DNA of 64,000 bases from Proteromonas lacertae. Its lineage: Eukaryota. The notes under the pieces were generated by a model, which saw nothing but the letters and a program-made list of their open reading frames with translations, had not been told where the DNA came from and made no database searches. A program made the translations under genes and the position numbers. This document shows positions 19,072 to 64,000 of this stretch, piece by piece (within the stretch, counting starts at the first letter, position 1; each line of letters starts with the position of its first letter). Location of the stretch: assembly GCA_002245135.1 (NCBI GenBank), contig NGBS01001182.1:1-64000 (forward strand), given 5' to 3'.

Positions 19072-22000
19072 TTATTCAGATATGCCAAATGCTTCTTTTA
19101 TAATCTGTCTGTTTGGATTACTGAAATCTTTTTCATAATGATATGCTTTTTGACAAATTTCATTAATTTGATCATATTTTGATGCAAAGATGTTATATAA
19201 CTTCTCTTTAATAATCTCAATCAACCCACTCTCTTCTGATATTTGACTATTCACTCTACTCAACAATTTATCAACACTTTTATATAAATTCCTTTCACTA
19301 ATTGTGACATTCTACAAAATATTAATTATGTATATCATTATACTTTTATAAATTTTGCTTTCTGTATGTGATATTGTAATTCATCATATCCTTTTGTATG
19401 AATATGTAACAAAGCTTCACTTAAAGTAGATAATTGATTTTCAAATTGATCATTTAATAAAGTATCACAATATTCATTTAGTGATTTCTCAAACATAGTT
19501 TCAGCTTGATTTATATGATCTTTTAATAATTCATATTTCCTTACACTCATAGAAGCGAAAAAGAAATAATAATTCTCAAGCCTAAAGATTTGAGAATATT
19601 TAGGATTAGTATGACATAACATTTCAAGATGTGTGAATAGTTTTAATATTACTGTAGCGTATACATCTTCTAAGATTGTTGTATTGTGATTGGATGCGAC
19701 ATTGGCAGCACATTGAATATAGTAAAAAATAATAATTAAAGAAAATATTATTATTATATATATTTAAAAAAAGGGATATATCACAAAATATTGGCATTTT
19801 TCTAAGTGATATTAATATATGGCATTTACTAATATCTGGTTTTTGACTATCCATCCAATTACTCTAATAAATAAATAGAAATAGAAATAGAAATAGAAAT
19901 AGAAATAGAAATAGAAATAGAAATAGAAATAGAAAATAGAAATAGAAATAGAAATAGAAATAGAAATAGAAATAGAAATAGAAATAGAAATAGAAATAGA
20001 AATAGAAATAGAAATAGAAATAGAAATAGAAATAGAAATAGAAATAGAAATAGAAATAGAAAAAATAGAAATAGAAATAGAAATAGAAATAGAAATAGAA
20101 ATAGAAATAGAAATAGAAATAGAAATAGAAATAGAAAAATAGAAAAATATAATATAAATACAACTGAAGTAATATGCGATTTAATATCTTGACTCAATTT
20201 CAACTGTAATGACTCCATAATTGTCTGAATAAACTTATTATCTTTAGTTTTCTCTAATGTTGACAATATAATCTGAGACATTGAAATCATCTGATAAAAT
20301 GAACGATTATCATTATTTACTACTTTCATCAATTCAGGGAATAATCCATTGAATATTTGACTTAGAATTAATTGAACTGTTTTATTATTAACTACATCTT
20401 GAGGATTTAATCGAACATTTTGAATATTTCTTTTGGCTTTGATATTCTTATAATCTGATTTCTGTTTTAAATTTTCGAGAGTTTCGTCAACTCCACCACC
20501 ACCACAAAAGAAGTGGATCGAAAATGTTCGAACACCATTTACCAACGGAACTATAAAATCAGTTGATTTTCGAAATGCGGCAGCTACACTAATTTTTCCA
20601 CTATCTCCTTTGTAATATAAATAATATTGTTCTTCTATCATTCTCATTTCATCTTCTTGTCTTCCTAAGTTGCTATTTGCTAAATCTATTAATCTTCCTT
20701 GGCCTTCTTCATTTATACTTACTATATTCCTTTTGGTTGAACTGAAGAACTCTTTTAATGTTTTTGTCATCAAATTGGTCATCTTTTCACAGTAGATTGA
20801 TTGTAATTGTGTAAAGATTTTCATATCTTTCTTTTGAATTATCCATAACAATGGAGCTAATAATATCATTTGATTATGAACACTTTGAGGCGTACAGTTA
20901 TCTTTTGAAAATTCATTATTCAAAGTCTTCAACAAAAAATCTGCCAATTTTGCAAAAAATGATTTGATTGTTTCATCTAACTTCAACTGTTGTTCTTTAA
21001 TTGCTTTCATGTGTTTAAATGATACTCCATTGTAATCTTCATCACCTAAGCTCTTTAACATTAATAAACCATTGGCACAATGAACTACTTTTTCAATTGC
21101 ACCTTCTGATTGTTTTACTGATTCTTGATCACTAATTCGAGTTCTTTCAGCCTTTTCAACACCTACTGTCATAGCTGTTTCACCATATTTTTTGGCTTCT
21201 TTTATTACATCTAATAATACATCATCGACTGTGTTTAATACATTTACGATATCTTCATCTAAATCTAATCTTTTTACAAAATTCTATAAATAATAAATAA
21301 ATAAATAATAATAATAATAATATATACATTCAATTCTTCACACAACTTCCTTTGATTTTCAATCTGATATTGAATGGCATAATTCTGGCTTGAGATGATA
21401 TTCAAGCCTTGTTTCATTTTAATGTAATGTTCAGATTTAGAGTCTAACCATTGATACATTGCATCTAATTGCTTATCTAATTTATCTAACTGTTTAGTAA
21501 TATCTGTAACTGGACCATCTCGATCTTGCTCCCAATCTACCAGTTTGTTGTATATCATATCTTCATCAGTCTTCACTATTGCATCTAATTGCTTACGTGT
21601 TGATTGTGTAGATAAACCTCTGAATTCTTCAGAATTGAAATACAACTCCAAGTTCATCATTTCACTCTCTGAGGTTAGCATTGACTGAGAAATGTATAAT
21701 TTCTGCATTTCATCATCTTCTTCTTGAGATTGCAAAATTGACAGTCCATTCTGCCCTTCTGAGACTAATAATGGACATTTCTGTGCAAATCCACCTACTC
21801 TTGCTAATACGTTGATTGCACCAATATCAAAACCTGATGTATCGAATGGTGTTAAATATTTTTGAGCTAATTGGTATAATGTCCATACAAACATATTTCT
21901 GAGTTTTTCATTACCTGTTTTGTACATTTCTGGTTTGCCATTAACGAATATTGTGAACATGTCGTCTTTTCCTTGTATATTTTCTATTTTTGATACCATC

Positions 22001-22351
22001 TTCAAGTCTATATGTTTATTATCACTATAATTGAATATTCCTCTTGAAATTGTGACTTTAACGTAATGAAACCATATTTGGTTTTGTATTGTTGGTGAAT
22101 ATGTTCCCATTAATATTTTGACACCTTTATTTTTACCATTTTCTATTTCTTCTACAGGTAACTCAAAGATAACAACTCTCTTTTGTGTAGGATATAATCC
22201 TAAGTTTAATTGATGTCTTATCTTATCACTTTCACACATAGGTGTTAAAACATCAAGAGTTGGTACATTACTATAACCAATTAAAAGAATGATGTTTATA
22301 CCTGATGATTTCAACACCTCTAGGTTGAACTTTAGGCGTTTTTGTTGCCAT
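19072..22351 (-). CDS. SEC3: Exocyst complex component Sec3/EXOC1-like
   Basis: N-terminal PH-like region, coiled coil with YQIENQRKLCEEL, helical C-terminus with RLENYYFF; GT-AG introns plus one AT-AC intron (19722-19779). Confidence 0.75.
19875..20146. repeat. (ATAGAA)n microsatellite, ~43 copies, inside a Sec3 intron (19864-20161)
   Basis: Directly visible hexamer tract. Confidence 0.98.
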
Positions 22352-22460
22352 ATTGAGATTCTAAAACTCTTATTGATTATAAATGAAGTGAAGATCTAAA
22401 AAAACAAAAGATTTTAAAAAATTTATCTCAAACTTGTTTGATTTTTATTTTTTCACATTA

Positions 22461-24406
22461 ATGTCTGTATTCTTATTCATTTTATTGTTTTTCTTTATAG
22501 GAAGCAGAGAAAAGAAAAAGGGATGAACAGGAAGATGAATCATCCGATGATGAAGTTGGTCCAATGCCAATATCAAAGGATCTTACAACAGAAGCACCTA
22601 AAAGAAAGAAACATAAGGGTATTTTACATAATATATAATTTTATAATATTAATAGTATTGAAAGGTGCAAAAGTATTACTTGATGCTTTACCAAGCGCAG
22701 ATATGTATGAAAAGAGTTATATGCATCGTGATTACATAATGCACACACTAATCACACCATGTACTGACTTTTTAATAACAGCCAGTAAAGATGGTGATAT
22801 TAAATTTTGGAAAAAGATGTTAGAAGGAATAGAATTCGTCAAACATTATCACGCGCATATGCAAGCAATCACAGGAATAGCGTGTACACCAGACGGTCAA
22901 AAGATTTGCAGTATTTCTGAAGATAAATCAATCAAAATATATGACGTTTTAACATTCGATATGATCAATATGTTTAAAATAAATTTCACTCCTTATGCCG
23001 TATGTTGGGTACCAACATCAACACAATTATTATTGGCAATCTCTGATAAAGATAATGGAAAAATTAGTTTATTTAAATATGAAGAAAAAAATAAAGTAGT
23101 TAAAGAGGTGAATAATCATTGTTCTCCTGTTAGTTTAATGTGTTATAATGCCTATGCTAAATGTATAATATCTTGTGATATAGAAGGAGTTATAGAATAC
23201 TGGTCAGTAGATAATAATAATGAATTACCATTCAAATATATCAGTTTTAAATATAAAAGTGAAACGGATTTATTTTCATTAATGATTTCAAAATCTCAAG
23301 CTACTAGTTTATCTTGTAGTCACAATGGAAAACTATTTGCAATAACTGATAAAGATGGACAAATCCGAATATTTAAATTTAAAACAGGTAAAATATATCG
23401 ACAATACGATGAAAGTTTGAAAAAAATAGAAGAAGATCAATTAAGTGGCAAATTAAAATTAGATGATATAGATTTTGGTAGAAGACAATCTTTAGAAAAA
23501 GATTATTTAAAATCAGAAGTATCAGCTGCTAGTAATGTCGTATTTGATGAAAGTGATAATATAATAATATATCCAACTTTAATGGGTATAAAGATAGTAA
23601 ATATACTGGAAAATAAAGTGATGAAAGTATTAGGAAAAGTAGAAAATGAAAGGTTTTGTTCTATTTCTTTATTTCAAGGAATTGCGAAGGTGAATACTCA
23701 GATTAAAGGTGAAAAAATTGATGATTCAAATAATCATAAAATTCCAGAACCAGATCCAACTCTCTTTTGTTGTTCTTTTAAAAAGAAAAGATTTTATTAT
23801 TTTACTAAAAGAGAGCCTGAAGAAATCAATGAAAATGAAACTGTAGAAGAGAATGAAGGAAGAGATGTGTTTAATGAAAAACCAACTGAAGATGAATTGC
23901 AATATATAGCCATGAATTCAAAAGAAGCAGTGAAATATGGAAATAAAGCCGTTATACATACAACCTATGGTGATATTGAGATAGAATTATACCCCCGAAA
24001 AACCCCCAAAACAAACGAAAATTTTTGTGGCTTGGCTCGAAAAGGATATTATGATAAAGTGATTTTTCATAGAGTTATTCGTAATTTTATGATTCAAACA
24101 GGTGATCCAAATGGTACAGGTACTGGTGGTGAAAGTTTGTGGGGTGGATACTTTGAAGATGAATTAAGATCAGATTTAACACATGATGCTTTTGGTGTTG
24201 TTTCTATGGCTAATGCAGGTCCAAATACGAATGGGAGTCAGTTTTTTATTACTACTGTCCCTTGTCCACATTTGAATGGCAAGCATACTGTGTTTGGGAA
24301 GTTAATTAAAGGTGATAAAGTAGTGAGAAGAATTGAAGGTGTGAAAACGGATAAAAATGATAAACCGATTGAAGATATTGAGATAATTAATATTGATATC
24401 TATTAA
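22461..24406 (+). CDS. PPWD1: WD40-repeat cyclophilin (peptidyl-prolyl isomerase)
   Basis: LPSADMYEKSYMHRD, GIEFVKHY, DFGRR, FHRVIRNFMIQTGDP, SMANAGPNTNGSQFFIT; first exon ATG TCT|GT. Confidence 0.97.
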
Positions 24407-24540
24407 TAACAGATATATTTGTTTTTTTCTTTTTTTACTATGAAATGACAAAAAGTTTGAATAAAAAGCTTGAAATCAAAAATCGTTATTTTTCTTTTTT
24501 CTATTTTTATTTTAATCTAAATTATATTTAAATTATAAAA

Positions 24541-26425: not shown

Positions 26426-29023
26426 TTACAATTCATCAAATTTTCTATACATATCTTCAATCTCAGCCTTTCTGTGACTTCTTGATCTATGCCATAAGAA
26501 TAATCCAACAACTACAATCACTGCAGCAATCACAATACAAACGATTGTGATTGTAGCAGTAGTTGTATCTGGTTTTGGAGTATCTGTTGGATCAGGAACT
26601 CTATTAAATGGTGTTGGATCTTGTTCAGGAATTGGATAAGGTTTATTCTTTGTTCCCCAAGCATGTAATGTATTTTCATCAGCTTTAATTTCATCAATAA
26701 CAAATTTTGGACCGAGTTCCTTTAGGATAGATATAAACTGTTTGATCTTTAGCTAATTCGACACTCCAATAACCAGCTTTAACATGAACTATTTTTACTG
26801 TTGCTGGTGTATGATCGAATTCACTTGTTAAATCATCCACTCTGATCTTTAATGGTGATCCAAATAATGATGTTATACTTATCCAATTGGTTTTACCTAA
26901 TTGTAAATGACCAGAAACACTAAATCCACCTTCAGCTTGTAATTGATAGAATGTTGTATTTTCTAAAGCTTTTGGTCTTGTTGGGAAAACAGTGAACATA
27001 TCCTTCATCAGATCTTAATAACATATATTGTAAAGCAAAATGCCATTCCAAATGGAGATTCATTCACTGGAGATTCACTTAGCTTCCCAGTAGAATGTAG
27101 CTTGTCCAACTCGATGACATTTCCAAGCTTCTAGTAATGTTTCCCAAGCTTTTTCATCTCTACCAGGTATTAATTGATAAAATACAGAAGCCATTACAAT
27201 ACTAAAACCAATATCAGTTACTCCAAAACTTGTCCAATGATCAATTGTTTTAGTCATTACTTCTGCTAATTCTGGATTTCCTTCGTATGTTTGTGTTTTG
27301 AACGGATATACCATAAAGATATGGCTCCAATGTCGATGTTGGCTTGCTAATTTCGTATCTTTGCCTATCAAATATCCTTCTTTTTCATCTTCATGATATG
27401 GAATTAAATTATCCATTAAGTCTTTACATCTTTCAATCATTTCTTCATCTGCTACTTTTAACATATCAATAATTTTAGTTAAATGACTACAGCTCCATCT
27501 GATTATTGATAAATCCCAATGTTGTATCTTCACAACTTGTAATATTCAGGACTATATGTAGATGGAAAATGATATTTACCATCCTTATCTTTAGTAGCAT
27601 AATGATAATAGAAATTAGTAGCTCTTCTAAGTGTAGGATATAAAACATCTCTTAATAATGTCTCATTATGTGTATATTGATAATGTAACCATAATATTTG
27701 ACAAACCCAATTCAAGTTTCCTGTTATTACCCACCTCTTGCTTTGACTACATCACCTGCTGTTCCCCATGATTGACTATCTAATTTCCAATCCCAACCTA
27801 ATTCAGTACCTAAAGCACCAGAATCACCTCTAAATTTCTCTTCAACACTTTCAGTTATTGCATCTTTATTTTTATCCATAAAGTGTAAAAATGATAAGAA
27901 TTGATCAGCATGATTAGCTCCCCATAAAGGCCAAGCTGCCATTTGAACATTTAAATCCATATGGTAATCACTCCAGTATGACTCAGTATACCAAGGACCT
28001 AATAAATCATAAGCCCAACAGTTATCTTCACTTTGACATCTTGTTGCTGATCCAACTTTATACATTTGAATCCACCAAAAACTTTCAGATTGTTTATGTG
28101 GAATAGAGATGAAAGATTTCTTATAATAATCATGCCACCATTGTTTATGTTCAATATAATGCTCACCTACATCAGTTCGTATATAATCTTGAAGTATTTT
28201 TATACCACCATCTATTGCATTTACATCTCTCTTATTACATTCCATGTTACTTGATTATCAATTGTTACATAATATGTAATATGATGGTCTTTATGATAAG
28301 TGATATTCGTCATAACCATTGAAAAATCACCACCAGCTAACATCACTTTTTCACAGTAATAGAAATATCTTCCACCTCTTATTTCATCTTTACAAACTGC
28401 ATCTGGATTGAATTTATAGTTATTCAACATTCTCTTGGCAAATGGTCTGCTCTTGGATGGTATTCGATTGGAACTATCTTTTCTTCACCTTCACTTTGCA
28501 TATCAATTACAAAGACATGATGTAAAGAATCTGTGAAAATTGTGTACCATATTTTACCTTTTGTGGTGACTAATTCACCTTCGATTTGTGCATCGTATAA
28601 GTTGATTCTGGCATTGCCTGATACTATATCTCCTGCTGGACGGATGTAGAAATAACCAACAGCCAATCTAAAACGATCAACTTCACTATTTAGATTATAA
28701 GATAAGTTGATTAATATTTATACGGATTGCCAGTTAGCTAAATCAGATCCTTTCATTCGATGATCCCACACATCAGCTCTACCAATATCGATTCTCATAA
28801 TACAATTGTCTGAATCATTCAAATATGTCAATATTCCTAGATTACCATTACCCACAAATGGAGCATCATACCACTTTTTATACCATGTTGAATTATCTGA
28901 AGCTTCAAACAACCATATAGGATCAGCCTTTTTCAAAAATCCCCTCCAATCAACTTTAACGTCTAGCTGAGCATTACAGTGTAATGCAAAGGCTAGAACA
29001 ACTAAAATCAAAAGATATTTCAT
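26426..29023 (-). CDS. GH95-like alpha-L-fucosidase with signal peptide and C-terminal TM anchor (frameshifted in this assembly)
   Basis: PFVGNGNLG, WSDYHMDLNVQM, PSTYSPEY, HRHWSH, LQAEGGFSVS; N-terminus MKYLLILVVLAFALHCNA; hydrophobic ITIVCIVIAAVIVVVGLFLW near the C-terminus. Confidence 0.8.
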
Positions 29024-30684: not shown

Positions 30685-33600
30685 TCATTTCACTGTTATA
30701 GGTCCAGAAGCACAATTAGGTATTGGTTGACTATCAATTTCTTTAATTTTCTATATAAATAAAAAAAATTCAATATATATACATTCAAAGTTGCTTTTAA
30801 TCTTCGATTTTCTAATTCAGCTTTGCTTCTCTCCTTTGCTAATTTCTCTCTTTCACTCCACACCTTCTTATAATCTTCTTTCAATTTATTATAAGCACTA
30901 TCCAATTTATCTTTATGTTCATTCAATTCAACTTGTTTTTCCTTCTATTTTAATAATAAATAAATAAATATATATATACATATAATTGTTCTTGTTGTTG
31001 ATTATGTATTATTTTCATATTATTATATTCATTATTTATATGATTTAACATCTTTTCTGTCTTATTCAATTTCTTTGTAGCTTCTTCCAACATCTCTTTC
31101 TTCTTTTTTGTCTCATTTTCTAAGGTTTCAGTAACACCAGTCACTTTCTCTAGTTTATTATGTAACTCGTTATTTTCACATTGTAAGCTAATCATGACTT
31201 TCTTATATTCATCTTCTTTAATTTTTATCATTTCTGAGAGTTGATTACATTGTTTTTCTAATTCATTCTTTTGATCTAATAAATTCTTTTCACTTATTTG
31301 TAATTGAATTAATTTATTGTTATAATTATCTTCTAATTGTCGTTTTGACTCTTTATATTTACGAATTATTAACTCTTTTTCTTTTTCCTGCTCTTCATTT
31401 TCTTGTTTCATTTTTTGTAAAGCTTCTACTGCATTTTCTGCAAGTTTTTGAGCTTCTTTATTCAATCCTTTCAAATTCATTTTATCTGTTTTTGCACGTT
31501 TTAAATCATTTCGAAGTTGGATTATTGCTTTTTCATGATTATTTTGCAGTTCTTTATATTTATCTTCTGTTAGTTTGAGTTGTTCATATAATTTAATTTG
31601 GTCATTTTCTTTTTCATTTAATTTGTTTAATATCATTTGAGCTTGAGTTGTATGTTCGTTTAACTGTATTTCAATATCTTTACAAATAGAAATTAAAGAA
31701 AAAAAATAATAATAATATAAAAAAGATATCTTTTCATTTTTTCATTAAACAATTGAATCCTCTTTATTATAGTTAATATCGGTTCTTGCAATTGCCCTAA
31801 TAATATCTGATCATCATTCGTAAAACCACCATCAGTCTTATTTACACCAATTATAATCACTTTTATCTTATTATATACATCAAATAATGGTAATCCAATT
31901 ATGTTTCTATAATAAGTACTTGATATTGGTATAATAACAGATAATTCGTTAATAAATGGAGTTAAATCATCACATTTACTGATTATTTTGGGTTTTGATG
32001 ATTCTATTATATTATATATAAATCCACGTCCACTACTAATTACTCCTCTTTTAGTGGATATTTCATTATAATTATTATTTTCAATCAATAATAAACAGCA
32101 TTCTTCACAATCCATTACTTTACTCAATTCACGTTCAAATGTTGGATATAAATCAGCCATCGTATGTATTGATAATAATGATGAATAGAATATATTTAAT
32201 CTCTTTAAATAATTGATAGTCTTTTCATCTTTTACTTTGTTCATTTCATATTCTTGATTGATCTTATTGTAGTCTTTATTATTATTGTGACGGATCCTTT
32301 GCATTATTATTGAGATTTCACCTGCACAGAGAGTTAAGATGGTGTTGTCATTCATATTAAATTTTCCCAAAGTATTGTCATTTTCATTTATACTTTCATT
32401 ATTATTATTTATATTGTTATTTGATAGTTTATTTTCACATTTTACAATTCCTATCAAATTACCATTTTCACTCTTGATTGTAGCGCATATTATATTTCTA
32501 CCAGTATCTATGGTTTTATCACATCTTATATCGTTAAATGGGTCATCGAAAATTGTAGTACCACCATGATTTAACATATATTGGAATATACCTCTATTAA
32601 TTGGATGTTTGATGATTTTACCATTTGCAATATCTTCAGTCCATAGGTAAGTACCTTTCTTATCACATATATAGAGAGACGAACTTTCACAATTTAATAA
32701 TTCTTTTAAATCATTGTAAACTATACTCATTAATGTTTCGATCTTATTACTGGATAAAAATCCATCTTGTAGACTGAGTAAAGAGTTAACTGTTTTGATG
32801 GAGGTTTGTTTGAGGATTTCATCATTACTATGTTCATTCACTTCCTTTTGGCAGTTTGTTAATAAGAGATTCTTTATCATTTAAGGTGTTATTTAAGGTG
32901 GTAATTTCTGTATGGGATTCGTTGATGATTTGACACTTTTCAAGACAGGAACCAATATGATTAGCTATTGTTAGATAAACTTCATTATTACCATTGAAAT
33001 ACTCCTTCTCATTATTTCCAAATAATAAAATTCCGTTTATATTGCCTTTATTGTCATGGAGAGGTACTGATAATACAGAATGACATAGTAATGGATTGTA
33101 TAATATATCATATTGTGGATCATATCTTTTATCTTCACATAACTCTGTTATTACAACAAATCTGCCTGTGGAATAAGTTAGGCCTGTCAAACCTTTGTTT
33201 GGCTTGAATCTGATTTTCCTATTTCTGATATATGTTACTAATGATTGTTTATCAGTTGTTAATGAGAATAATGTCATGGAAGACATTCCCAATAGATTAC
33301 TACATTGATTTACTACAACTTCAATGAGATTCTGAATTGAGATTGAATGAGAAGTTATTTCATACACTTTCATAATTCCAGATGTAATATCTTGTTTCAA
33401 GTAAATAAATTAAAGAATTCTAATTATATATATTTAAAAACATAAAAATAGGATATTTTCAGCAATATTCTGCTCACATTCTTGTGTTTTCTTCACCATC
33501 TTGTTATATTTTGAGCATAATGACAATATAGGTGAAATATAACCACAATATTGTTTAAACAACTCTTCATGTTGAGAAGTGATATTGTTACTTCCACATT

Positions 33601-35339
33601 CTAATCCACCAATCATTTTGCCTTTAGATGAGTATATTGGAACACAAAGTAATGATTGAGTTGGTATCTTTTGAATACCATCAATATTCATATTGTATCT
33701 AACATCTTGAAGAACATTTAATACTTATATATAATTAAGGGAAAGAAAAAAATAATATATGATAGAAAATAAGAGTATAAATAGATAAGAGATAATATAT
33801 AGTAATTTATAATAATTTAAAAAGGATATATTTATAACAGTATTATTCAATAAACATTTTCCAATAATTCCATCATTCTTATTAAACTTATAACAATTTC
33901 CTCTAACATAAGTGAATATCTTTTCATTCTTATTATCTAATATCCATATAGTAATCCATTCTAAATCAATAAGTGGAGGTAATTCCTTATGAATCATATT
34001 ACATAGTAAATTATAATCAGTTGTTGATTTGAAGAGTGTTAATAATAACTTGATGGTTAAATCTTTTCGTTTTTGTTCAGTGAATAAATTGATGTGGAAT
34101 GTTTTCGGTGTTTTTAATAACTTCGTCTGTCTTTTGATTTGTGTCATTTATCATGTTATGTAATTCCATAAATCTATAGGAAAATAAAAATAAATAAATG
34201 AGAAATAAAAGAATGATATACTTAAAAGCTCTATTATAAGTCAATAATAATTGTATTTCTTATATCTTCCACAGCATTAATGAATATATTGTTATTAGTC
34301 CATCCCATACATATTATTATATTTATCATATTATTGATATTAATAGGAATGAATATTACTGTATGATATCGATGTACTTCATTAGGTGTTAATTAATATA
34401 TCATTTGTTCGAGATACTTGATCGTATAATTTCTATATAAATAGAGTAATAATATAATAATAATATATACAGATAAATATTCATCGCTGATTATTATATT
34501 CGATTTTGATGATTGGTTGAATATTTGAACATGATCTGTATAAAATATATCCAATAGTAATGTCTGTAAATGTGAATCAATTTCATCCACTGAATTGTAC
34601 TTGTACATTGTATTATTAAAAGTAAAACAACATTTCCAACGACTATATTTTTAATAATTGAATAAAACATACGTTATTTCACTGTGACATTCACTAATTG
34701 TGTTATTCAAATTATTTAACATTTCTCTTTGCTGATCTGCTTCATTCTGAAGTGTTAGTAAACTATTATTGAATTGATTTACCATTTTGTTATGTTGTTG
34801 TAGTTCATTGAATTGTGCCTTTTCTACTGATTGTAATGATGATAAACATCCACTAAATATTTCTACTAGTGTGTCTAAACCTTCTAATTCTGTTGGATCA
34901 ACTCCTTCAATGTAAATACAGCTTGTTAAATCCTATTATAATATTATAATATATAAATACTCCTTCATCAGTAAATACAGGATAGCATGAATGATATAAA
35001 CCATTTCTTTCATCACAACTATTAATTATGAGTAAATGTAATATACATTATTGCTTCATGTGTGTCTCTTAACTCTTCCACATATGAACCTGCTTCGTCA
35101 GACAAATCTATTGAATACTTAACAAAATTAAAAATACCTGGTTGAGGAACTGTTAAGTCAACTATTAGTACTTCTTTAATTGATGGTATTGAAGACACCA
35201 TGGCTTTTAGACGCTTTGCAGCTTCAACTATAAAAAATATAAAAGCATGAATATAAAATTTATAATTAATGTCATTAATCATACGTGTCACACTAAATTC
35301 TTGTTTTGACTCCTTAAAAAACTTTACAGATTCATTCAT
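30685..35339 (-). CDS. Multi-GAF-domain protein with C-terminal coiled coil
   Basis: Repeated GAF signatures (GIIGKC, D.RY...D, SLLCVPI, SVLSVPL, CENK...F...D, VNKTDGGFTNDD); no PDE or cyclase catalytic motif seen; contains three AT-AN introns. Confidence 0.8.
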
Positions 35340-43902: not shown

Positions 43903-45808
43903 TTATTTACTTAAAGTTCTACAAATTATTTTATCATTTTTATTTTTTATACCTCCACCTAACAATTTAAAAGATGTTCTTTCTTTAGCTTCTAAATAAA
44001 ACGCTTCTCTTGCCATTTTACAAAACTATAAATATAATATAATATATATATACATCATTATCTGGTAATTCATCACTTGTATCACAAATATAACTCTTCA
44101 TTATGCCTTTTCCTTTCACATATATATCACCTCTTTCAGCAAAATACTTCTGCTTTTCAACAGGCAATTCTTTATAAGTTGCTTCACTGATATGAATTAA
44201 ATCAGGAATTCCATTACTCTCCATTCTACTGGCTGTATTTACTGTATCACCAAATAGACAGAATCGTGGGACTTTTTGACCTATTACACCACCATATGCT
44301 GTGCCTGAGTGAATTCCAATTCTTATTTTTAATATTTCACCTGTTGGTTTGACTATACATCGTGAAATTTTGAGTAATTCTCGAGCTGTGTCAAGCATTC
44401 TTTCAGCATGATTTTTAACACCATCATGACCAGCTACTGCCATATATGCATCACCAATCTATAAATCAATAAATATAATAATAATAATAAGATAAGAATG
44501 AGAATTTTAAATATTATATATAAATACAGTTTCTACTTTATAAACACCATATTTCCCCACAATCTCATCAAATTCAGTGAATAAACTATTCAACAGATTA
44601 ATTGTCTTAATTGTATCAACTTGTGCAGTCATTTCAGTGAAATTCACTATATCTGTAAAGAGAATTGTTACTTCATTATATTCTTCAGCAATATTCATAT
44701 TACCTGCGATTAATTGATAAGCAATATGACGTGGTACCATTGTAGTAAGCAGCTAAAAAAATAATATATAAAATAATATATATATATATATACTTTTCTA
44801 TATTTATCACTTTCATATTTATTAATCAATAATTTCTTCATTTTATTCAAATTATCTATTCTTAGACTAATATCATCAAATGATATTTTATTATTAAATA
44901 TTTCATTCACACCAACATCCATACATTCTTTATACTTTATATCATCTTCATTTCCACCTACTATTATACTCATTTCATCTTCTTTTATCTCTTTTCTTAT
45001 CTTCTTTATTAAATCAAAATCATTTTCATTTACATAATCCATTATAAATAAAGATATATCGCTATTATAACTATTATTATTATTGTTATTATTAAGTAGT
45101 TTATCAATTACTTCTTTTTCATTATATAATATTTGTGTCAAGTATTTCTTTTCATCTAATACTTTAAGAATTAATTCACGAAGGTTTAAGTTATTGCGGA
45201 AATATATAATACAATTATTGGGAAGTTCTAAATTGAATAAATCATTGTCTATATCATCCATTCCATTGCTATCTTCGATTTCACTGAAGTTGAATTGTTT
45301 ATATGTATTCTTTCTATCTCTGATCATCTTGGGTGGAAGTAATGCTGAAGATTTTCGTTCTATTTTACATATTAAAAATAAATATATATATACTTGATTT
45401 TCTATTATTAGATGATTGTTTTGATATATTATATCCTATTACTTCCATAGATTGAGGTCTTTTATTTTTATTCATTGTTCCTGTACCTGGTAATACTCTG
45501 TAATGATCATCATCTTTTGGAGTACATAGTAATGGAGGTGTGTATATCATTGTGGATTGAAAATGAGTTGGAGGATATTTGCGATGAAGAGGAGTTTGCT
45601 TGAATGTGGGAGTAGAAGATGCTGGCCTTTTATTTTCAGGAGAACTTGACTTAGGACTCAAGGCTTCTTCGATATTCTTCACAATTTCAACTTTTAATGG
45701 AGAAGTAGCTATTGTTGTGGTACTTTCATTGGGTGCTGAATGAAAACTGGTAGTTGATATGTTTAAAGAATCGTTATTTACATGTGATGAGGAACAAGAT
45801 GCTCCCAT
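43903..45808 (-). CDS. Class III nucleotide cyclase (guanylate-type residues) with receiver-like domain and N-terminal acylation motif
   Basis: VTILFTDIVNFT, YKVETIGDAYM, RIGIHSG, PRFCLFGDTVNTASRMES; REC-like LFIMDY...DLIKKIR...GVNEIF; starts MGASCSSS. Confidence 0.92.
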
Positions 45809-45955: not shown

Positions 45956-47169
45956 ATGCCAGGACCAAAAGAAGAAAATGTATTATGATTTAATTATATT
46001 CTTTCATAGAAAGTGACTAAAACAGCATGGAGATGGATACTTGAAGGTGAAGGATTAGAGCCAGCAACTGATGAAAATGGTCAACCGTTAAATGCAGAAG
46101 GTATAAAATTTAAATTTTAAAATAAATTATTAAATAGAGGCAAAGAAAGTAGTAAACTCCAAAATCCCCAAAGAAAAACCATACAATATTCTTTATGTTG
46201 GAAGAAAAAAATCAGGGAAAACATCATTAGTTGTATATATAATATTGTTTTATTCATAATAAATAGAGATACTATAAATCTTCAATTAATCAAAAAAATA
46301 AAGCAGAAGAAGGTAATCCAGAAGATACAGTTGCTTTAGAATATTCATCAGCTTCTAAACAAATTAACGATTTAATGTATGTAGTAAATCTCTGGGAATT
46401 AGAAAGTTCATTAGATTTAAAAATCTTATTACCAACCGTCATCAATCCAGACGATTTGGATAAATTATGTGTCGTATTTGTAATAGATATATCTCGTCCA
46501 AAAAGCTCATTCAAAGAATTAATCAAATGGATAAGAGAAATTCAATCTCAAATCAAAGAAGCGAAGAAATCACTTGGTGTTGGTGGAGAAAGTAAAAGTG
46601 ATGGAAGTGATAAATGGAGTGGTGTAGAAAGAGTAATTATTGGCTCATTTTTGGATGAATGTAAAACATTTACTAAAGATCAGATGAATGCAATTATTGA
46701 TAGTTTTAGATATGTAGCAAATCACTATGGAAGTCATTTACTATTTACTAATCCTAGTAATAAACAGACAATGGAGAACTATGCAGATTTAATGGACAGT
46801 ATTACATTCGGATTGAATAAAAATAAAATAAAATGCAGTGTAAATGAGAACTTATTAATTACAAGAGATAGTGCTGAATACGAAAGTTTTGTGAAGGTAA
46901 TAAATGAAAAATTTGGTCAAGACACGAAGAAATGGTTAGATAATTTGAATACAATGTTTAGTGATTTAAAGGAAAGGAATGATGAAGAACTATTGGTTGA
47001 TAAGAGTGATGAACCTCCATCAAATGCTGCACAAGAAGTGGAAAGGAATGTGGAGGAGAAAATTGATAAATTGAGAAAGCAGAAGGAAGAAGATTTGAAA
47101 GAGTATATTCATGAGGAAGAAAGACAAGAGAGATTAGAAATGAAGAATATGTTGGGTGATGATAAGTAG
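45956..47169 (+). CDS. DYNC2LI1: Dynein light intermediate chain, dynein-2 (IFT) type
   Basis: P-loop ILYVGRKKSGKTSL, TVALEYS, NLWEL, VFVIDISRP, RYVANHYGSHLLF, E.KID.LR.QKEEDL..Y. Confidence 0.75.
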
Positions 47170-48023: not shown

Positions 48024-50647
48024 ATGCAAATCGCTGAAGATTCACAAATACTGTTCCCAACAAGGGGAAGTACTTTCCTAGAACACAAAGAGAGCAGTAT
48101 TGTTCCTCCTAGCAGAAGAAAACATTTGTATAATTGGTAATTATTGATTTAGTCATGTGATTGTTTCTAAGCATCGAGGTTTATGTGGCCAAATAGTAGC
48201 TTCCATTTTAAGGTATAATGAAATAGTAACTATATTGAAATAGTTCGTTTTTAATACTAATGTCATTCTTAACTAATCCAGTTGTCTTATTTAAAGGTGA
48301 ATTAGCAGCTTATTTACCTTTAGCTATCGCACAAAGTGCAATTGGCAATCGTATATACATTTCTATTAACTAAATATGAATAGTTTTAGTACAATTAGTA
48401 TTCACAACAATTGGTAAATACAATAGCAGTATAGTAAGATTAAGTTCAGAAAGTTTACCATTTTTAGTAACAGTTCGTAGACGCATTGTTAAAAGAAAAG
48501 ATGGACTGCTGAAAATAAAGCCTCCACATTATTATGGTGTATAGCCTTCACCTCAATTTACACAGGAATACTCAGTCTAATAATAAGTGCCTTGAAATTA
48601 GGTTCAATTTTAAATTATCTCCCTATTCCAGTCAGAGGTGGTGTATTTGGTTCCATTGGTATTGTCTTTTATACTTCTGCATATTCCGTAGCTTATGGTG
48701 AAGATATCAGTACTAGAGTTTTTACTCATTTTAATTTAGCAATGGTTTTCTTATTAAACCTCATAGGATTATTCACATACTTCATGTCCATGTGGAAACC
48801 ACATCCATTAACAGTACCACTCACATTCATCGTAGGAACATCAATATTTCATATTGTCTTATTCAGTTTAGGATATAATCTGTCAGACGCTCAGGACAAT
48901 ACTTGGCTTATGCCCGAGCCGAAGTTCGTCAATTTCTGGAACTTATACGTCTCAATGGATCCTCGTAAAGTCAATTTCAGTTTCTTATTCTCTCAAACTC
49001 CTCAATTATTATTAGCCTGCAATATTAGGTCCAATTTTAAACACAGGAATCAATACAATAGTGTTAGATAAGATGTACGATGACCAATCTGATTTAGATA
49101 TAGCTTTACGTCATGTTGGAATTGGTAATATCTTAGGTGGAATATGTGGTGGATATCCATCATTCCAATATATTAGTGCAACTTCAATACATCGAACTTG
49201 TGGAGGAACTAAAAGAATATCAACAATCATTATATGTGTGATTATGCTAATATCATTCTTTGTTCCTAAGATGTTATTGGCTATTATTATAATCCCTAGG
49301 TTCTTACTGGGAGCAATCTTTATACATATAGCTATTGATTTCTTATGGAGTGCTTTATATAGTGATTTCTTTGAAGTTAATTTGTTTGAATATTTGATTA
49401 TATTGATTATGGTAATTGTTAGTTTATTTCACTGATGTTACTATTGCTTTATTAGTTGGTGTTATTATTTGTTTTGTTTTGTATATTTATAATTCAGCAC
49501 ATTCTGATTATATATCGATGGAGAATGATACTTCACAAGTACAGAGTAATATGTTGCAATCAATTGATAAAGTATATATATATAACTTATTATTTCTCAC
49601 ATTTTCTTACTTTATTTTTTATCTCCTTTTATAGGATTTATTTAAACATTCTAAACAACTTATCAAAGTCTTCAAATTAGCAGGATATATATTCTTTGCA
49701 CCATCTTATGAAATTAAAGAAAGAATTATTAAACAAGTAAATATGTTTAACTCCATGAATTATAAACAAATTACTCATATATCATTATATATATTATTAT
49801 TATCTTTTCTTTAATATATAAAAGTTGTTGTTGATTTCACTATTTGTACAGGAATTGATACAACTGCAACTAATGTGGTAATTGATATGGTTGAAAAATT
49901 AGTAACTCAGAATATTCATGTAGGATTAATCTTCGCCAATCAAAAGCGAAGAATTGAATTTCATAAATTATTTAAACAAAGGAAAATATTAGGTGGAAGA
50001 AAAGATGATTTTTTTAATATTTATGGCACTTTAGAACAAGCTTTAAGTGACTTGTGAATTAAAAATCGATTTACCTGTCGTTTTATCTCCACGAAATGAA
50101 ATTAGTGAATTTAAAAATATCAATTTACAAAATTTGAATTTGTTCTGTAGAATGTTGAAGAATATTCGAGGTAAAGCAAGCCGTCAAGCTTTACTACGAT
50201 CTGTTCAATTGGGACTTGGTAAAATAGAATGGATTAATAAAGGTGAATTAGTATATCACGAATTTGAAAGAAGTGATGGAGTTTATTTCTTATGTTATGG
50301 ACGAGTAAGTGCAATTATTTTAGACACTATCAATGAAAGAGTTTCATTGTTTAACCGTCAAGAAAATGATATAAAAGATTTAAAGAGATTATGGACAATT
50401 ACTGAAGTGGGAAGTTTGATTAGGAAATGTGTTGGAAAGAAAAGGAATAAGTTATACAACAGAAACAATGATATGTGATACAAATGTTTTATTATATCAT
50501 ATTAATGAAGAGAATTTATTTAAATTTGAGGAATTAGATGAAAAAGAATACACTGTGATAAGTCAGTGGGAATTAGAATTGAGATATAGGAAAATGAAGT
50601 ATTTAATTGAGAGAGTGAAAATGAGTCGTCAATTTATATTAAGTTAA
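48024..50647 (+). CDS. SulP/SLC26 anion transporter with STAS and cNMP-binding-like domains
   Basis: LKLGSILNYLPIPVRGG, GIGNILGGICGGYP, LAGYIFF, VVDFTICTGIDTTA, KGELVYHEFERSDGVYFLCYGRV; several frameshifts; one AT-AA intron. Confidence 0.88.
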
Positions 50648-50709: not shown

Positions 50710-51793
50710 TTATTTCAACATTCTCTTCTTTTTCTTTCCTATCTTACTTTTTACTATTTCATTCTCATCCATTACCATATTTTCATCATCATTTCTATTT
50801 AATTCAACATTTTCATGATTCATTAACAATAATTGAGGAGGTTCGCTATGGCTTGAGTAATTAGCGCCATTTCTATTGTTTATTGGAGGAAACATTGATT
50901 TCATTGGATTTGGACAAGAATAACTATAAAATTATTAAATGATTAAAGAAATTTATACAAATTGTTATATTTTCCATTTATTCCATTAATTCCACCAACC
51001 ATTTGTTGTTGTTTAAACATATTCAACTGATTGGTCAAAAATGATATTTCTCTATTCTTCTGTTTCATTTCAATTTCTACTTCATTTAATGAACTTTGTA
51101 ATCTGATTTTCTCATTTTCACTTTCACTCTTTTGGTATTGCAATTGATCAAAGTCTTTTTCTAATAAATATAATTGTTCATGATAACTATTTAAATATAA
51201 TAATAATAATTATTATTATATACTGATTTTCATTTTGTTGACTGATTGATAATTGTTGATTTAAACTATCTAATGTTTGTTCTAATTTCTCATATTTTAA
51301 TTGCAATTCATGAAATTCATTCTATTTTATAATAATAATTATATATATATATATATATTATACGGTATAATCTTTCTTTTCTTCATATTTCTTCACCAAC
51401 ATATTACTTCTATTCAACTTATTACTTAAATAATTTATTTTATTATTCAAAAACATTTCTTTATTCTTTCTATCATTTGTCTCGTTTTCTAATTCTTTTA
51501 TTTTATTCAATAATATTTTTCTTTCTTCTTCTACATGTTTTGTTAATCGATTATTTTCATTATTTTTATTCTTTTGATTCATTAATTCAGTTTTGGTTTG
51601 ATTTAGTTCGTATGTCAATATTTCAATTTCATTGGTTAATTCTTTTATAGTTTCTTTTGTTTTATCTTGTAGTTCTGCAATCTGTGCATCAGCTTCACTT
51701 AATTGATTTTCATATTTTTGAATTAATGAATTGTTATTTTGATGAATACTTTTTACAGATGAATTATCTGAATAGGATGTAGATGGAGGTAAC

Positions 51794-57117: not shown

Positions 57118-57208
57118 AAGGAAGATATTCAAAAACAAAAAATATGTTGAATCAAACCTTTGGCTTGACTTGATTTTAAATTTCTTTATTTCTCTTTAGA
57201 TAAGGATA

Positions 57209-58180
57209 ATGAATAGAAAGGAATTATCAAAAACTTTTGTTCATCATATGCACTTCATTAATTACCCTAGTACAATTAATATAGAAAAGTAATTATCAAA
57301 ATGTTAATTTTGTTTATATAGAATATTGATCGGTGATCCTACAGAATACATGCCAATTGTAAATTTCATAATAGTTGGATATTCTCCAGAAATAGCAAAA
57401 TTGATCGATGTTGATATTAATGGACTTACAGATCGTTTATTCATCACCTACATATTCAAATTCATAGAAAAACATTTTCATTTAGATGCAAATATGACAG
57501 TAAATGATTTTTTCACTCCAAAAAGATGTATTCACAGAAAAATGAATTATGTGATTGAATTAATTAATAGCATAAGGAAATATTTACAACATGACATTCC
57601 TGTTTATCCTCCAGTTACATTATATAACAATAAAGAATACAATCCGTCAAATAGTTATCTTCACGTTTTAAATGTTTCGAATATAAATTCAGAAATAGAT
57701 TCTATATTAAATATTGATAAAATTAGAAAACCTTTGAAGAAAGTAGATACAGTCATTTCTTCTTCAGATAGTGAAGAATCTACAACAACGACTAATAGTT
57801 TTACATCATCAGTTAAATCATCATCTTTTAATGATTCAGATAATGAAATTAATAGTAGTTTAAAACCAATAAAATATCATAAACCAAAATCTACAACGAA
57901 TCAAAGCAGTATTAATAATACACACATTTCTTTTGAAGATAAAACATCTGATTCAATTAATTATTCATCCTTATTACCTTCAAATCCTAATATATCAATA
58001 GAAAGTGATAGTAAAAGTGTCAATGTGACAGTTATTCCAAAATCTACAGGAAGTACGTTAATTGATGATAATTCAATTATTTCTAAACAGTTACAGCAAA
58101 TACTTGAACAAATGTCAAAAATGAATAGTAGGCTGGAGAGATTAGAAGAAAAAATGAGTAAAATTGAATTGAAAACTTAA
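57209..58180 (+). CDS. CEP44: Centrosomal protein CEP44-like
   Basis: INYP...ILIGDP..YMPIVNF..VGYSP.IAKLI....TDRLFI..IFK....F......T...FF.......K N-terminal domain; S-rich linker; terminal coiled coil. Confidence 0.75.
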
Positions 58181-58327
58181 TTAAACGTATATTTAACCTT
58201 AAATTCTTATCATATTATCCTTTTTTTTTAATTTTTATAACTGAAAATGAAACGAATTATTTTCCCAAACCCAATTTAATTTAATGTTAATATTTTGTGA
58301 TCTGGATAGTAAATAAATAAAATATTA

Positions 58328-59693
58328 ATGTTACCAGCATTAAATGGTCTTACTTGTGATACTACAAGCGTAAACTTGGATGTATAGGTTATTGATTTAT
58401 ATTTACACATTAGTCTTCTGAAAAAAGTACACCACTCTTTTCTCCACAAAGTTGTGGCGATTTACAACATAAAGACAGTATTCAGTTGGATTATCCATAT
58501 GAACACCCTTTCGGCTGTCCAGTGAATGAAGAATCTATGTCTCCTGTTAGTCGTAAAGGAACACAATACTATAATCATGTTATGCAGAAACTGACTCCAA
58601 TTAATAATAGAAAGAAGCATTTGTCTCTCAATTTATCAGTTAAAAATATATTAATATTACATAAGACATTAGATCCAGATAGTCATAACATGACAAGACC
58701 TGTATAAAATAAGATTTAATGATTTATATTTTTTATATAGTATAATGATTACATGTGTGCTGTAAAAATACAATCTGTAGTTCGTCGATGGTTAATATTC
58801 CGTAAATATGACAGGATATGAGACAAACAGGAAAGAATGTCGGTTAATGTTGTTAAATGAAGCGATGGACGATACTTTTATGTCAATGACACTACTGTCA
58901 GGTAAATATGACCTTAAGAATAAATTTGCAAAGGATATAACAAGATATATTAAAGAGAGAGTGAAAAGATTTGATGAATCTGTATAATAGTTATTTTATT
59001 GATTATTAATATTATATATATAGGTAACTAAAGAGGAATTATTTAGTAATTACAACTCTCTCTTCCGATTGGTTGATATAACAAATCAAAAATTTCTATC
59101 ACATCCAATATATTTATACTTTTTATTGTATATTTTAAATGTAAATTTGAGTTATTCTGAAGCTGTTGTTGTTGTTGAACAATTGGATAAAAACACAGGT
59201 ATAGTAAGATATGATGATGGGTTGGTATGGTTTAAGAATAATTTTTTAAAATTGAATAGTTTCCAAGGCAAAATGGCAAGAGTATATATATATTTTTTAT
59301 TTTATTTTTAAAAAATAGTTTCAAAGAAAATATGAAATAAATAGAAAAAACTTCGTATATAGAAATGAAATAATTGAACCAATGTTACAACAAATATTAA
59401 CAGTAGCAAATGAATATGTTTTATATAGAAAATACGACCAAAGTAATCCACCACTATTCTTCTGTAAAAAATGTTCGTTTATATCTTCCAGACCAATGGA
59501 ATTATGTCGTCACATAGTAAAATGTAAAAATAAACCAACTGAAAGGAAATCAAGGAATAGTAGAAATAGTAGAAACAGTAGAAATAGGTATAGTAAAAGC
59601 AGTAAAATGAGTAGAAATGAGAATGTTAATAAAGTCTTTGAAACAGATGCGATTATACAAAATGTGTTAAATAGAATTGAAGAAAGTAATTAA
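58328..59693 (+). CDS. Hypothetical protein with IQ motif, EF-hand-like segment and C2H2-like finger
   Basis: AVKIQSVVRRW, LDKNTGIVRYDD, CKKC....LCRH...C; multiple introns. Confidence 0.55.
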
Positions 59694-59804
59694 TTTACTT
59701 TTTTTTTAATTTATGTAATTTGTCTTATATATTTTATTTTTATGTGAATTGAATTATTTATAAAAAATTAAAAAGAAAAAAAGAACTAATTAAACTATTT
59801 TTAT

Positions 59805-60458
59805 TTAAATAAATATTAGCAAGGATATAAACAATAGAAGTATATTTATAACTACAGTGAAAGAATCTCCATTAAAAGTCTTAATTTGACTATATTTTCT
59901 AAATATACAACCATCTCCTGTTTGATCTTCACAAGTTGAACATTCTAAACCTGTTTTACACACTGCATATTTATTTTCATAATATTCACTGTAATAATCA
60001 TATAATTTATATCTATTATTCTCTGATTTATATGAAAAATCAGTTTCTATATCATTTGGATGTATTCCTGTAATATTAGCCAAATGTTTACCTATATCAT
60101 TATTTCTCACAAAAGTACCATCATAATATCTTATAATGGTTGAGACATAATTAATTTTATGTACATTATCACTTACTTTGGTAAGGTAAAATCTATTAAT
60201 ATGCATATAATAGAGTATTATTATACTTCTGCGTTTCTACTGCAGATGATGATTTTAAACCACAACTTTTATAATATAAGATAATCAGAGTGACATTCAT
60301 ATTTGTTTCATCGTAAAATACTTGTTTAGTTGAATTATAATCACAAATGGTGGTGTAGCCTTTATCGACACATACTATTTCAATTAAATAAAACGCATTA
60401 TACCAGCTTCCATAACTAAACACAAGTAAATGATTATCAATTCACTAAAAAACTTCAT
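59805..60458 (-). CDS. Small secreted, putatively GPI/TM-anchored Cys protein (paralog 1, frameshifted)
   Basis: Hydrophobic C-terminus; shares NVTL.IL.Y, ETQKY, I.YVST..R.Y and RYKLY..YSE.Y..KY..C with its neighbour. Confidence 0.65.
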
Positions 60459-60563
60459 TTTCTAAAAAAACGTAATTTACATTGTCAATTTTACCTGATT
60501 TTGTAAATCATTTATTTTGTAAGATAAACACCAAAAACAACATCAAAATAGAAAAAAATATTT

Positions 60564-61226
60564 TTAAATGAACAACACTAATATAAATATCATAACAATA
60601 ACATTGACTGTGATTAATGAAGAATTTGAAGTTGATACAGTTGGTATTTGAGTAAATACTTTCTTTTCAGTACAATCTGCACTCGATGTAGTAGTAGAAA
60701 TACAACAATTTAGTCGATTTTCACATATAATATACTTTTTATCATATTTTTCACTGTAATGTTTATATAATTTGTATCTTTCATCATCTGAATTGTAACC
60801 ATGATCTTTTTCTAGTTTTGTCCATTCTATACCAATTGTATCAAATAATTTTCTCCCATCATCTTTCTCTTTAGCATAATTTACTGAATAGAATCTGACT
60901 TGAGTTGAAACATAGTGGATTTGGTAAGTTCCTTCTGGTAATCCTTGCTTTGTTAAATACAACCTAAATATATAGCATTCAAATTGATACTTTTGAGTTT
61001 CAGTTGCATCAGAAAAATCAGCACTACATTTATCAAATGCATAATGTAGTATTAAAAGAGTAACATTTAGATTTGTATCATCCACTAAAGCTTGAGTAAT
61101 AGCATTATTATCACAATACGATTTGAATCCTATATCAGCAATACCTACAATATATTTTTGGAATTATATACAAGGTACTGTCATATAAAAAAACACTATA
61201 TAGATGAATATAAAACACTTTTTCAT
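60564..61226 (-). CDS. Small secreted, putatively GPI/TM-anchored Cys protein (paralog 2)
   Basis: Signal-like start MKKCFIFIYIVFFI, S/T-rich spacer and hydrophobic C-terminus. Confidence 0.7.
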
Positions 61227-61359
61227 TTACGTTTTTGAATTAAAGTAATTTACTTTTAAAATTACCAAAAATATGTAATTAACAATATATCAACAACAAA
61301 CACATATGAACAAACATTATTTATATACTTTTCAATTATACGACATATAATATAATAAA

Positions 61360-64000
61360 TTACTCTATTCTATTCATAATTTTCAAGTTTAGGCAGTTAA
61401 TCAAATATTTACTTTCTTTAAGTGGTAAATTATTGAAATTAAAGATATATGATAATTATATATTCATAAATAAAAAAGGATATATATCGTTAAAAGAGGT
61501 ATTTCTTCAGATTTGTCTATTATAAATCCACATTTTATATTCTTATAGTCTAATACATATTTAATTATAGCCAATCGAATCATAATAATCTCTTTGATAG
61601 TAATATCAATTTTAATCTCCTTTTCATCACCATTGGTGTTTATATTTTCAGAATTAGTGATCGAAATACCATTAATAATCTCATACAACGTATATAAACA
61701 ATTTTCATGATATCTAAGAATTAATGAACAAAAATTTCCACTATTTGCAAAATCTTTAAATCTGAAATTTCCACCAAGTGTATAAAACCCAATAGATTGT
61801 AAAATCAACATTATTTCACTAATATTCAAATTCTCTTTTCCACTAAATATATCAAATTCACCAATCATTTGTTGTAAAAACAAATCATTCTTTACATCAA
61901 ACAAAATTATGAAATTCTTCATTTCATTTTTTAAATAACTAAACAAGTTCAAATATTCAATATTTTCATAACAAATGAGTGGTAATATTGGAATATTCCT
62001 ATTTAAGGACATATAAAACAAATTCCCTTTACTATTTTCCAAACTAAAACACTTTAAAATATTATCATTTTCATCAATCAGTAAATTGTTCTTTATATGA
62101 TAATTATATATAATATAATTCACTATACCTATTGTTACACTGGATATGATGTTGTTATCTAAATAAATATCTAATTGAAATAGAGAGCTACAATTTAAAT
62201 TATCAAATCTATTATGAATATATATTTAAATAATTTCTATATACATTATTTTGCAAATATGATCTTGTTTTTCAAATTTATATGTAATAATATTTTTATA
62301 ATTATTTCTATTGTTATTAATAATGGTTTTATGATTGATAATATCAATTAATTGCATTCTAATTAGTGGAAAAGTTTCTCCACTGTTGATATTATTATTA
62401 GATTTAACTATAACATCATCATCCACTCGATAATAAGCAGATTCAATTCCATTTTTATCTTTTAAAATAATTGGAATTTCTATCTCTTTATTAGATGGAT
62501 ATATATAAATATTAGACTATTTAATAAAAATATAATAATAATATATATATATATATACAGTGGTAGTAGATGTTTTATAATATGCAAAATTATCACAAGG
62601 ATCAATACATTTAATATGAATTGGAGAATTCAATATACTTTCATTCTCAGATGTTAATATATAAATATCATAATCTCCAATTTCATAGAAACGTAATGTA
62701 AATTCATATATCAATTTGTCTTTATTTAATTTAATATCAATATTATTTGTTTGAGTTCCTGTTATATAACATTTTAAGTAATTATTTGTCAAGCTTATGA
62801 CTCGATTATTATCTTTATCGTGTAAGTGTATTTCGAAAGTGTAGTTTTTATTTTTATAATATTCTTTTTCTATTTTTGGTTTTATTGTTGATTTATCCAA
62901 GTCAATTTCACCATAAACACCTTCTATTAGATATGGACTTTCAGATATTGGCATTTTATTATAAAAAATGAATAATTTATATAATCCGATTTTTCTGAAT
63001 TTATAATTGATAATTATTTCATTTTTATTATTGATTGTGATAGAATAATCAGATTTATCAATATTTGGAATAAACTGAAGTTTATAATCTTCTAGTTTTG
63101 TATATTTAAATAATCTTAAATTCTTTAATGAAACAACAGTACAAGTATGAAATGAATGAATAGTACAAGGCGACTGTATTCCTCTAATCCCAACTATTAT
63201 AATAAATATAATCGTTATACTTTCATTTGATTGGATATTCATATTCTGTGGAATTTCTATAATAAACGGTGAATCTTTAATATTTTGAATTTGTGACAAA
63301 TTATCAACATCATCTTTATATTTCTTACTCATCGCTTTGATATAGATTTTAAGTGGATAATAAATAGTGGAAAATGTGTTATATTGAAAAGTATATTTCC
63401 CATTATTATGATCAATCAAACTAAATCCTATTTATAATTATTAATAATAATTTTAATATATATATATATTATACTATAAATATCATCATATTCTTCTTCT
63501 TTATTATTATTATCGATAACATTCCACGTATTGGTTTTATATAACAATTTCTCTCTTTCTTTCTCTTTATCATAACTATAAATTTCAATAGAAACATAAT
63601 CATCACCATTTGTTAAGTCTTTATTGCCATCACTAATGGCTTTTATCTCTATATTTACTAGTCCATCATTCACAACTATTAATAATAATAATATGTTATA
63701 TATATATATATACAAGGTTCTATTCCATTTCCACTAGCAATACACTTTATAGGTGACAGTATTGGTTCTTTTATTATATTTCTCAATACAATATCTTCAT
63801 CAATAAATCCAATTATTGTATGACTTCCTTTTGTTAATATTGTGTTGATTGTAGATGTATTCATTACGGTGAGTGTATGGAGTAACAGTGGAATGGTTTG
63901 GACGGAGTTTATATTGGGAATGCCAAGACGATTTTGGTTGTAATTACCCCAGACATACTATATATACATAATATAATAATATATATATATATATATATAT
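61360..64000 (-). CDS. Filamin/Ig-like repeat protein (5' end outside the window)
   Basis: SPIKCIASGNGI, DHNNGKYTFQY, IKDSPF, PISESPY, FEIHLHDKDNNR, ILNSPI; last exon joined by an AT-AC intron 61425-61483. Confidence 0.8.

Follow-up and report, generated by a model that had tools for sequence, protein, structure and literature searches.

In a 64,000-nucleotide (nt) stretch of the Proteromonas lacertae genome (positions 1 to 64,000 of contig NGBS01001182.1, assembly GCA_002245135.1; hereafter the window), six short segments are very probably U12-type introns, which would be removed by the minor spliceosome of this flagellated relative of Blastocystis, and three of them are predicted to end in AA. 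An earlier note on this DNA had proposed the six elements, and all of them were found in the sequence at the coordinates it gave (Table 1). They lie in four genes, always on the sense strand. The kind is already known as the U12 introns of Blastocystis; what is new here is the larger proportion of predicted AA ends, a branch site drifted towards A and T, and a lineage that has not yet been surveyed.

Table 1. Predicted minor introns of the window and the genes that hold them
Feature	Position	Strand	Length (nt)	Phase	Branch motif	Remarks
U12-type AT-AC intron (predicted)	19722..19779	-	58	0	19742-19735	exocyst Sec3 gene
U12-type AT-AA intron (predicted)	31680..31729	-	50	2	31699-31692	GAF/coiled-coil gene
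U12-type AT-AC intron (predicted)	33401..33456	-	56		33416-33409	GAF gene
U12-type AT-AA intron (predicted)	33725..33829	-	105	0	CCCTTAAT, 33741-33734	within GAF domain
U12-type AT-AA intron (predicted)	49779..49823	+	45	0	49808-49815	donor ATATCA; within STAS domain
U12-type AT-AC intron (predicted)	61425..61483	-	59	1	61445-61438	precedes last 21 codons of filamin-repeat gene
Host gene, Sec3/EXOC1-like	19072..22351	-				also has four major introns
Host gene, multi-GAF coiled-coil protein	30685..35339 (ends approximate)	-				holds three of the six minor introns
Host gene, SulP-STAS-cNMP transporter	48024..50647 (ends approximate)	+				holds 49779-49823
Host gene, filamin-repeat protein	61360..63864 (may start beyond the window)	-				holds 61425-61483

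The candidates are 45-105 nt long and have a GC content of 7-13%, the window as a whole having 27.1%. Their donor is ATATCC in four cases, ATATCT in one and ATATCA in one, and the branch motif is TCTTTAAT in five and CCCTTAAT in the remaining one, with the general form (T/C)C(T/C)TTAAT. The second branch A lies 9-14 nt from the intron end, which is AC in three introns and AA in the other three. For comparison with the ordinary introns of the same DNA we used a self-training gene parser that reads both strands and allows for major introns, optional U12 introns and frameshifts. Its U12 matrices were built from the U12 consensus and the six candidates were not used for them. The parser called 120 major introns with a median length of 32 nt, of which 107 start with GTAT, and 104 of these 107 end in TAG; nearly all major donors read GTAT with A, T or G as the next base, and C at position +5 occurs in none of the 107. 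A branch motif 8-20 nt from the end is present in all six candidates and in 1 of the 107 GTAT-start major introns (Fisher p=3e-9). That single major intron, 50924-50958 (-), bears the TCTTTAAT motif near its end; it may have passed from the minor to the major class, or the motif may be there by chance. GTAT is one base away from the minor ATAT, a closeness which may ease conversion between the two intron classes.

The parser called the donors of all six candidates and the 3' ends of five as in Table 1, and its overall score rose by 80 log units once U12 introns were permitted. It also made extra U12 calls, two in the first run and one in the final run, all of which were dropped before the count. 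The call at 27539-27575, made in the first run, lies in coding DNA of a GH95 fucosidase-like gene beside a frame break and disappeared with cheaper frameshifts; the one at 48541-48575 has the donor ATAGCC, a GC content of 42% and an uninterrupted coding sequence in the homologue P0310. A rule combining the motifs, composed after the six candidates had been seen, gave seven matches, all at the six loci (one locus having two donors) and at no other locus, while 100 + 100 class-matched Markov simulations averaged 0.15 and 0.33 matches and never exceeded 2. Among 22 donor-like sites preceding AT-rich DNA no seventh minor intron was found. Nor was a minor intron of the GT-AG type seen in the window, where none of the 107 major calls begins with GTATC, so that this part of the earlier proposal held.

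The reading frame agrees with these boundaries. It had been claimed that removal of the segments restores the frame in five of the six cases, which is so for five as delimited; for the sixth, 33401-33456, it is so only if one A of the A-run at its donor (33457) is taken as an insertion in the assembly, or if an AC at 33394, 7 nt downstream, is used as the 3' end, giving an intron of 63 nt that is in frame without any error. With either correction the frame is opened in all six. The AA termini fit the frame at all three introns concerned (31680-31729, 33725-33829 and 49779-49823), the last of which contains an in-frame stop.

The intron at 33725-33829 was compared with a GAF profile made from matches among 148 distant homologues, and the AT-AA junction of Table 1 was the best of 17 variants, with 73.7 bits and no gap across the junction. 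The GT-AG alternative at this locus reaches 47.9 bits, a loss of 26 bits, and removes conserved GAF residues, and the AT-AG version contains five stops. The exons flanking 49779-49823 match positions 8-35 and 43-105 of the STAS profile in order; both matches are weak and, with E values of 0.15 and 0.058, fall short of the curated threshold. At 19722-19779 the next exon is matched by Pfam Sec3_C-term, and the upstream exon of 28 amino acids (aa) has no Pfam match. A search for longer Sec3 proteins gave none among 5,557 candidates, and among PDB sequences the STAS and Sec3 exons had nothing beyond chance matches. The weakest of the six is 61425-61483, for which no homologue of the flanking exon was found and which is supported by its motif and the parser. 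One short exon upstream of its minor intron, the Sec3 gene has a major intron (19864-20161, -) of 298 nt, ten times the usual length, which a 6-nt repeat present in 44 copies (19873-20137) fills.

Two of the six intron positions are common to homologues, and the intron type is legible for one of these, from the amino-acid read-through alone. P0139 and its cluster, which are genomic gene calls about 35% identical to the GAF/coiled-coil protein, cover precisely the exon between 33401 and 31729 and fix the upstream phase at 31729. P0139 and P0286-P0299 have an intron at the same place and in the same phase as 31680-31729, with a read-through that fits a GT or an AT donor alike. P0295 reads through the counterpart of 33401-33456: its donor residues permit ATATCA and no G, the interior permits TTCTTTAAT, and the end permits AC and excludes AG. 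The position is the same and the phase is 0, provided that one A of the donor A-run in the window is surplus. Since P0295 favours the surplus A, the boundary at 33401 proposed earlier is preferred to that at 33394.

Several points weigh against minor introns at these places. Splicing of the six candidates is predicted from signals, spacing, frame and two conserved positions. Rfam finds no minor small nuclear RNA (snRNA) in the 64-kb window, and no U11/U12 protein was seen there. The shifted-frame match of P0295 scores 67 against a maximum of 64 in 300 shuffles, which is good and not overwhelming. In three introns the branch A is 9-10 nt from the end, below the human optimum of 11-13 nt (PMC3584512). 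The parser requires 22 frameshifts in 51,762 predicted coding bases, about one per 2.3 kb, so that the window holds at least 22 frame breaks, and an AG stands 1-2 nt past each of the three AA ends. A rival reading is that the segments are AT-rich coding or untranslated DNA, or that the major spliceosome uses GT-AG sites nearby. When U12 introns are forbidden the parser does find GT-AG paths at four loci, one of them at the cost of an extra frameshift, and in the filamin-repeat gene, where the intron is without homology support, it comes to a plain stop (61466). The claim that no usable GT-AG ends exist needs a correction, since formal alternatives are available at four loci. They need GTTT donors, which start 3 of the 120 major calls, none credible, against 107 of 120 with GTAT. 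The loss of 26 bits at the GAF junction, the co-occurrence of the motifs far above the simulated nulls and the retention of a non-GT intron at the same place in P0295 likewise argue against such explanations, and we regard them as highly improbable.

The AA ends by themselves might be AT-AG introns in which a one-base assembly error near each junction makes AA seem to be in frame. The neighbouring AG dinucleotides, the rate of frame breaks (one break being probably at a minor donor) and the preponderance of AT-AG over AT-AA in the rows considered of the Blastocystis ST1 intron table (46 and 7; PMC5608401 S11 Data) speak for this. Every junction would have to carry its own error only a few bases away, for which we estimate a chance of roughly 1 in 100 per junction at this error rate; use of the AG leads to a stop after 1, 2 and 18 codons at the three introns (after two codons at 31680-31729, where the AG is 2 nt past the end), and the upstream phase at 31729 is fixed by a homologue. 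Error at all three is accordingly very unlikely, and that at least one AA end is really AG for this reason is improbable to a lesser degree. Three of the frame breaks were compared with homologues: those near 32860, 49015 and 49430 are missing there, the latter two from the 94%-identical P0310, and the break near 32860 in the GAF gene is likely an assembly error. The GH95 fucosidase-like gene (26426-29023, -), which carries a membrane anchor, has about six frame breaks in 2.6 kb, either assembly errors or the mark of a pseudogene.

If the six segments are minor introns, established U12 biology (PMC3584512) suggests how they would be recognised. The U11/U12 particle would read ATATC(C/T/A) at the 5' end, U12 would pair with (T/C)C(T/C)TTAAT, and the 3' end would be the A-C or A-A lying a short fixed distance past the branch A, with no need for an AG or a pyrimidine tract. 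The first and fifth donor bases may keep the two classes apart, GTAT in the major class being followed by A, T or G and never by C. The branch site had been described as shifted. The sequence bias is real, and it can be explained by C-to-T drift with G-U wobble to an unchanged U12: compared with TTCCTT(A/G)AC the motif has two C-to-T changes, each opposite a G in U12, which such wobble would tolerate. In RNAduplex all six motifs pair with the canonical U12 octamer at -3.8 to -5.3 kcal/mol, as compared to -6.8 for the consensus. A branch site that co-evolved with an altered U12 snRNA, as in Physarum, would instead mean a transformed minor system. Such a system would account for the T at the fourth position in five of the motifs and the final T in all six; for those five, an octamer with the compensatory G-to-A change gives slightly stronger pairing (-4.1 to -4.5 kcal/mol, the canonical one giving -3.8 to -4.2), and the Physarum U12 is changed at the same position (10.1101/2020.10.12.336362). 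With that octamer the CCCTTAAT intron is lost (-0.9 kcal/mol), and C-to-T drift is expected where introns have a GC content of about 10%. In humans, minor introns of CACNA1C and XPO4 have TCTTT(A/G)A together with an ordinary U12 (PMC6717393 supplement). Since G-U wobble lets an unchanged U12 pair with TCTTTAAT, a variant also found in CACNA1C, no co-evolved snRNA is needed, and we consider one rather unlikely.

With 6 minor introns among 113 the local share is 5.3% (confidence interval 2.0-11.2%), or 4.8% when all 120 major calls are counted. The 113 consist of the six and the 107 GTAT-start major introns; the 13 other major calls were excluded, several of which patch frame breaks while a few may be real. 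Blastocystis ST1 has 346 minor introns of 35,412, about 1% (PMC5608401), and the excess here has a binomial p of 0.0009 with introns as units and 0.024 with the four genes as units, three of the six being in one gene. A lineage-specific expansion had been suggested from this density. The local share does exceed that of ST1, and an expansion across the lineage does not follow from it: one window cannot show this because the minor introns of ST1 cluster. In the first 10,325 intron rows of S11 Data (120 with an ATATC start), with row order assumed to be gene order, six or more fall in 2 of the 91 blocks of 113 introns, up to 8 are found in a sliding window, and the variance is larger than the mean. 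The clusters extend across neighbouring genes, above the Poisson expectation, with 8 minor introns in 111 rows, 7 in 108 and 6 in 97 (sheet rows 8975-9085, 3369-3476 and 6826-6922), a feature not remarked on in the passages considered of PMC5608401. That all six start with AT, none being GT-AG, was likewise observed as claimed, but it is already the pattern of ST1, where 339 introns have an ATATC start as against 346 minor introns reported.

It follows that the six could be real and the genome share still ST1-like, about 1% or less, the window being one of the clusters of such a genome. This is a doubtful reading, for which the ST1 blocks, the three introns in a single gene with the weaker p when genes are the units, and the choice of the window for its minor introns all count. 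Six in 113 favours a share of 2-5% over 1% by 6- to 14-fold if the window was randomly placed; with the dispersion of ST1 the probability of exactly six is 0.006 at 1%, 0.034 at 2%, 0.06 at 3% and 0.08 at 5%. Genome-wide, the share is probably no lower than the 1% of ST1, and a share of 3% or more is conceivable without being the better bet, high shares being rare. To our knowledge, Physarum is the only lineage known with a bulk gain of minor introns. A second mass expansion may have taken place here, though this is less likely than not; it would comprise 3-5% or more of the introns (thousands), all with AT starts and with AT-AA as a co-dominant subtype, and the few hundred in Blastocystis would then be the remnant of a gain begun in the opalinatan ancestor. 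Phase 0 is found in four of the six (33401-33456 being counted as phase 0), closer to the 49% of ST1 than to a usual 22% (p=0.024), and EXOC and SLC26 genes have no match on the mouse/human minor-intron gene list, in which positive controls were found; both lean weakly towards gain within the lineage.

The remaining content of the window fits its origin. [quoted passage not shown] The window encodes a nucleotide cyclase with a receiver-like region (43903-45808, -), a dynein light intermediate chain (45956-47169, +) and CEP44 (57209-58180, +), a set which fits a flagellated cell rather than Blastocystis; tortoise Blastocystis is, on these differences, an unlikely host. For PPWD1 the best named matches are oomycetes, and relatives are found at 89% and 69% identity; in a tree built from the window together with 35 of the 120 matches (36 rows) the window groups with two relatives on a long branch. 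P0001, P0002, P0138, P0139, P0310 and P0311 are from genomic contigs of at least two relatives, whose PPWD1 and SulP are 89-94% and 69-82% identical. A metagenome scan gave 12 loci of 32-58% GC, none from a close relative. One predicted gene at 8101-16455 (+) is built from a unit of about 1.9 kb that occurs four times almost unchanged. Three identical 31-nt GT-AG introns connect the copies, and the predicted product, about 2,750 aa long, has a membrane segment at its C-terminus; the repeats are either a recent tandem duplication or an assembly repeat. At 430-514 (+) Rfam gives an 85-nt transfer RNA match, which probably contains an intron and which ARAGORN in bacterial mode did not find.

If the window were typical of the 52-Mb genome, about 4,900 minor introns would be expected (Poisson range 1,800-10,700); the 1% of ST1 alone, extrapolated at about 113 introns per 64 kb, would give of the order of 900, more than in humans. 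Standard gene finders do not see AT-AA introns, and gene models in this lineage are therefore probably broken where they occur. A pan-eukaryote survey left open whether the AT-start, phase-0-rich minor introns of Blastocystis are recent gains and wanted more genomes of the clade (PMC10639083); with introns of this kind in a flagellated relative, the question can be tested directly. Minor introns of Proteromonas are not reported among the matches listed for the literature on minor introns in Blastocystis, Proteromonas and Opalinata, one of the listings covering the top 40 of 441. Proteromonas is not named in the text and one supplement of the survey (PMC10639083), and the word 'minor' is absent from the passages considered of Lind et al. 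(PMC12129017).

Among known systems, that of Blastocystis ST1 is close to the six introns in the passages and supplementary rows compared here (PMC5608401). U11, U12, U4atac and U6atac and minor-specific proteins are present in ST1 and ST7, ST1 having all four minor snRNAs and seven of the proteins. A practically exclusive ATATC start, short introns, a short distance from branch to end (shorter still in ST1, about 6-9 nt by eye) and clustering within genes are common to both, as are many phase-0 introns (49% in ST1; here four of six, provided that the extra A at 33457 is an error) and major introns of about 30 nt ending in TAG. In 149 of the 339 ATATC-start rows, scored by eye, the end is AC in 93, AG in 46, AA in 7 and AT in 3. 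Predicted AA ends are more frequent here, at three of six compared with 7 of 149 (p=0.004), and none of the six is predicted to end in AG, compared with 46 of 149 (p=0.18). The branch motif of ST1 is mostly CCTTCAC or CTTAAC (a TCTTT type in about 2 of 149 by eye) as compared to TCTTTAAT here, its introns are mostly 37-53 nt long against 45-105 nt, its donor has C at +6 in 336 of 339 where C, T and A occur here, and its share is about 1% against the local 5.3%.

Animal and plant U12 introns are similar in the 5' ATATCC(T), the branch near the 3' end and the dispensable polypyrimidine tract, and differ in that they make up less than 0.5% of introns, are mostly GT-AG and are biased away from phase 0 (PMC3584512, PMC10639083). 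[quoted passage not shown] Physarum polycephalum is similar in its high density (a local one here), the T at the fourth branch position, the +6T donors and AT-AA among the common non-canonical ends; its share of 20,899 in 175,198 (11.9%) is higher than the 6 in 113 found here (p=0.015), and its minor introns are mostly GT-AG, with the branch TTTGA and a demonstrated compensatory change in U12 (10.1101/2020.10.12.336362).

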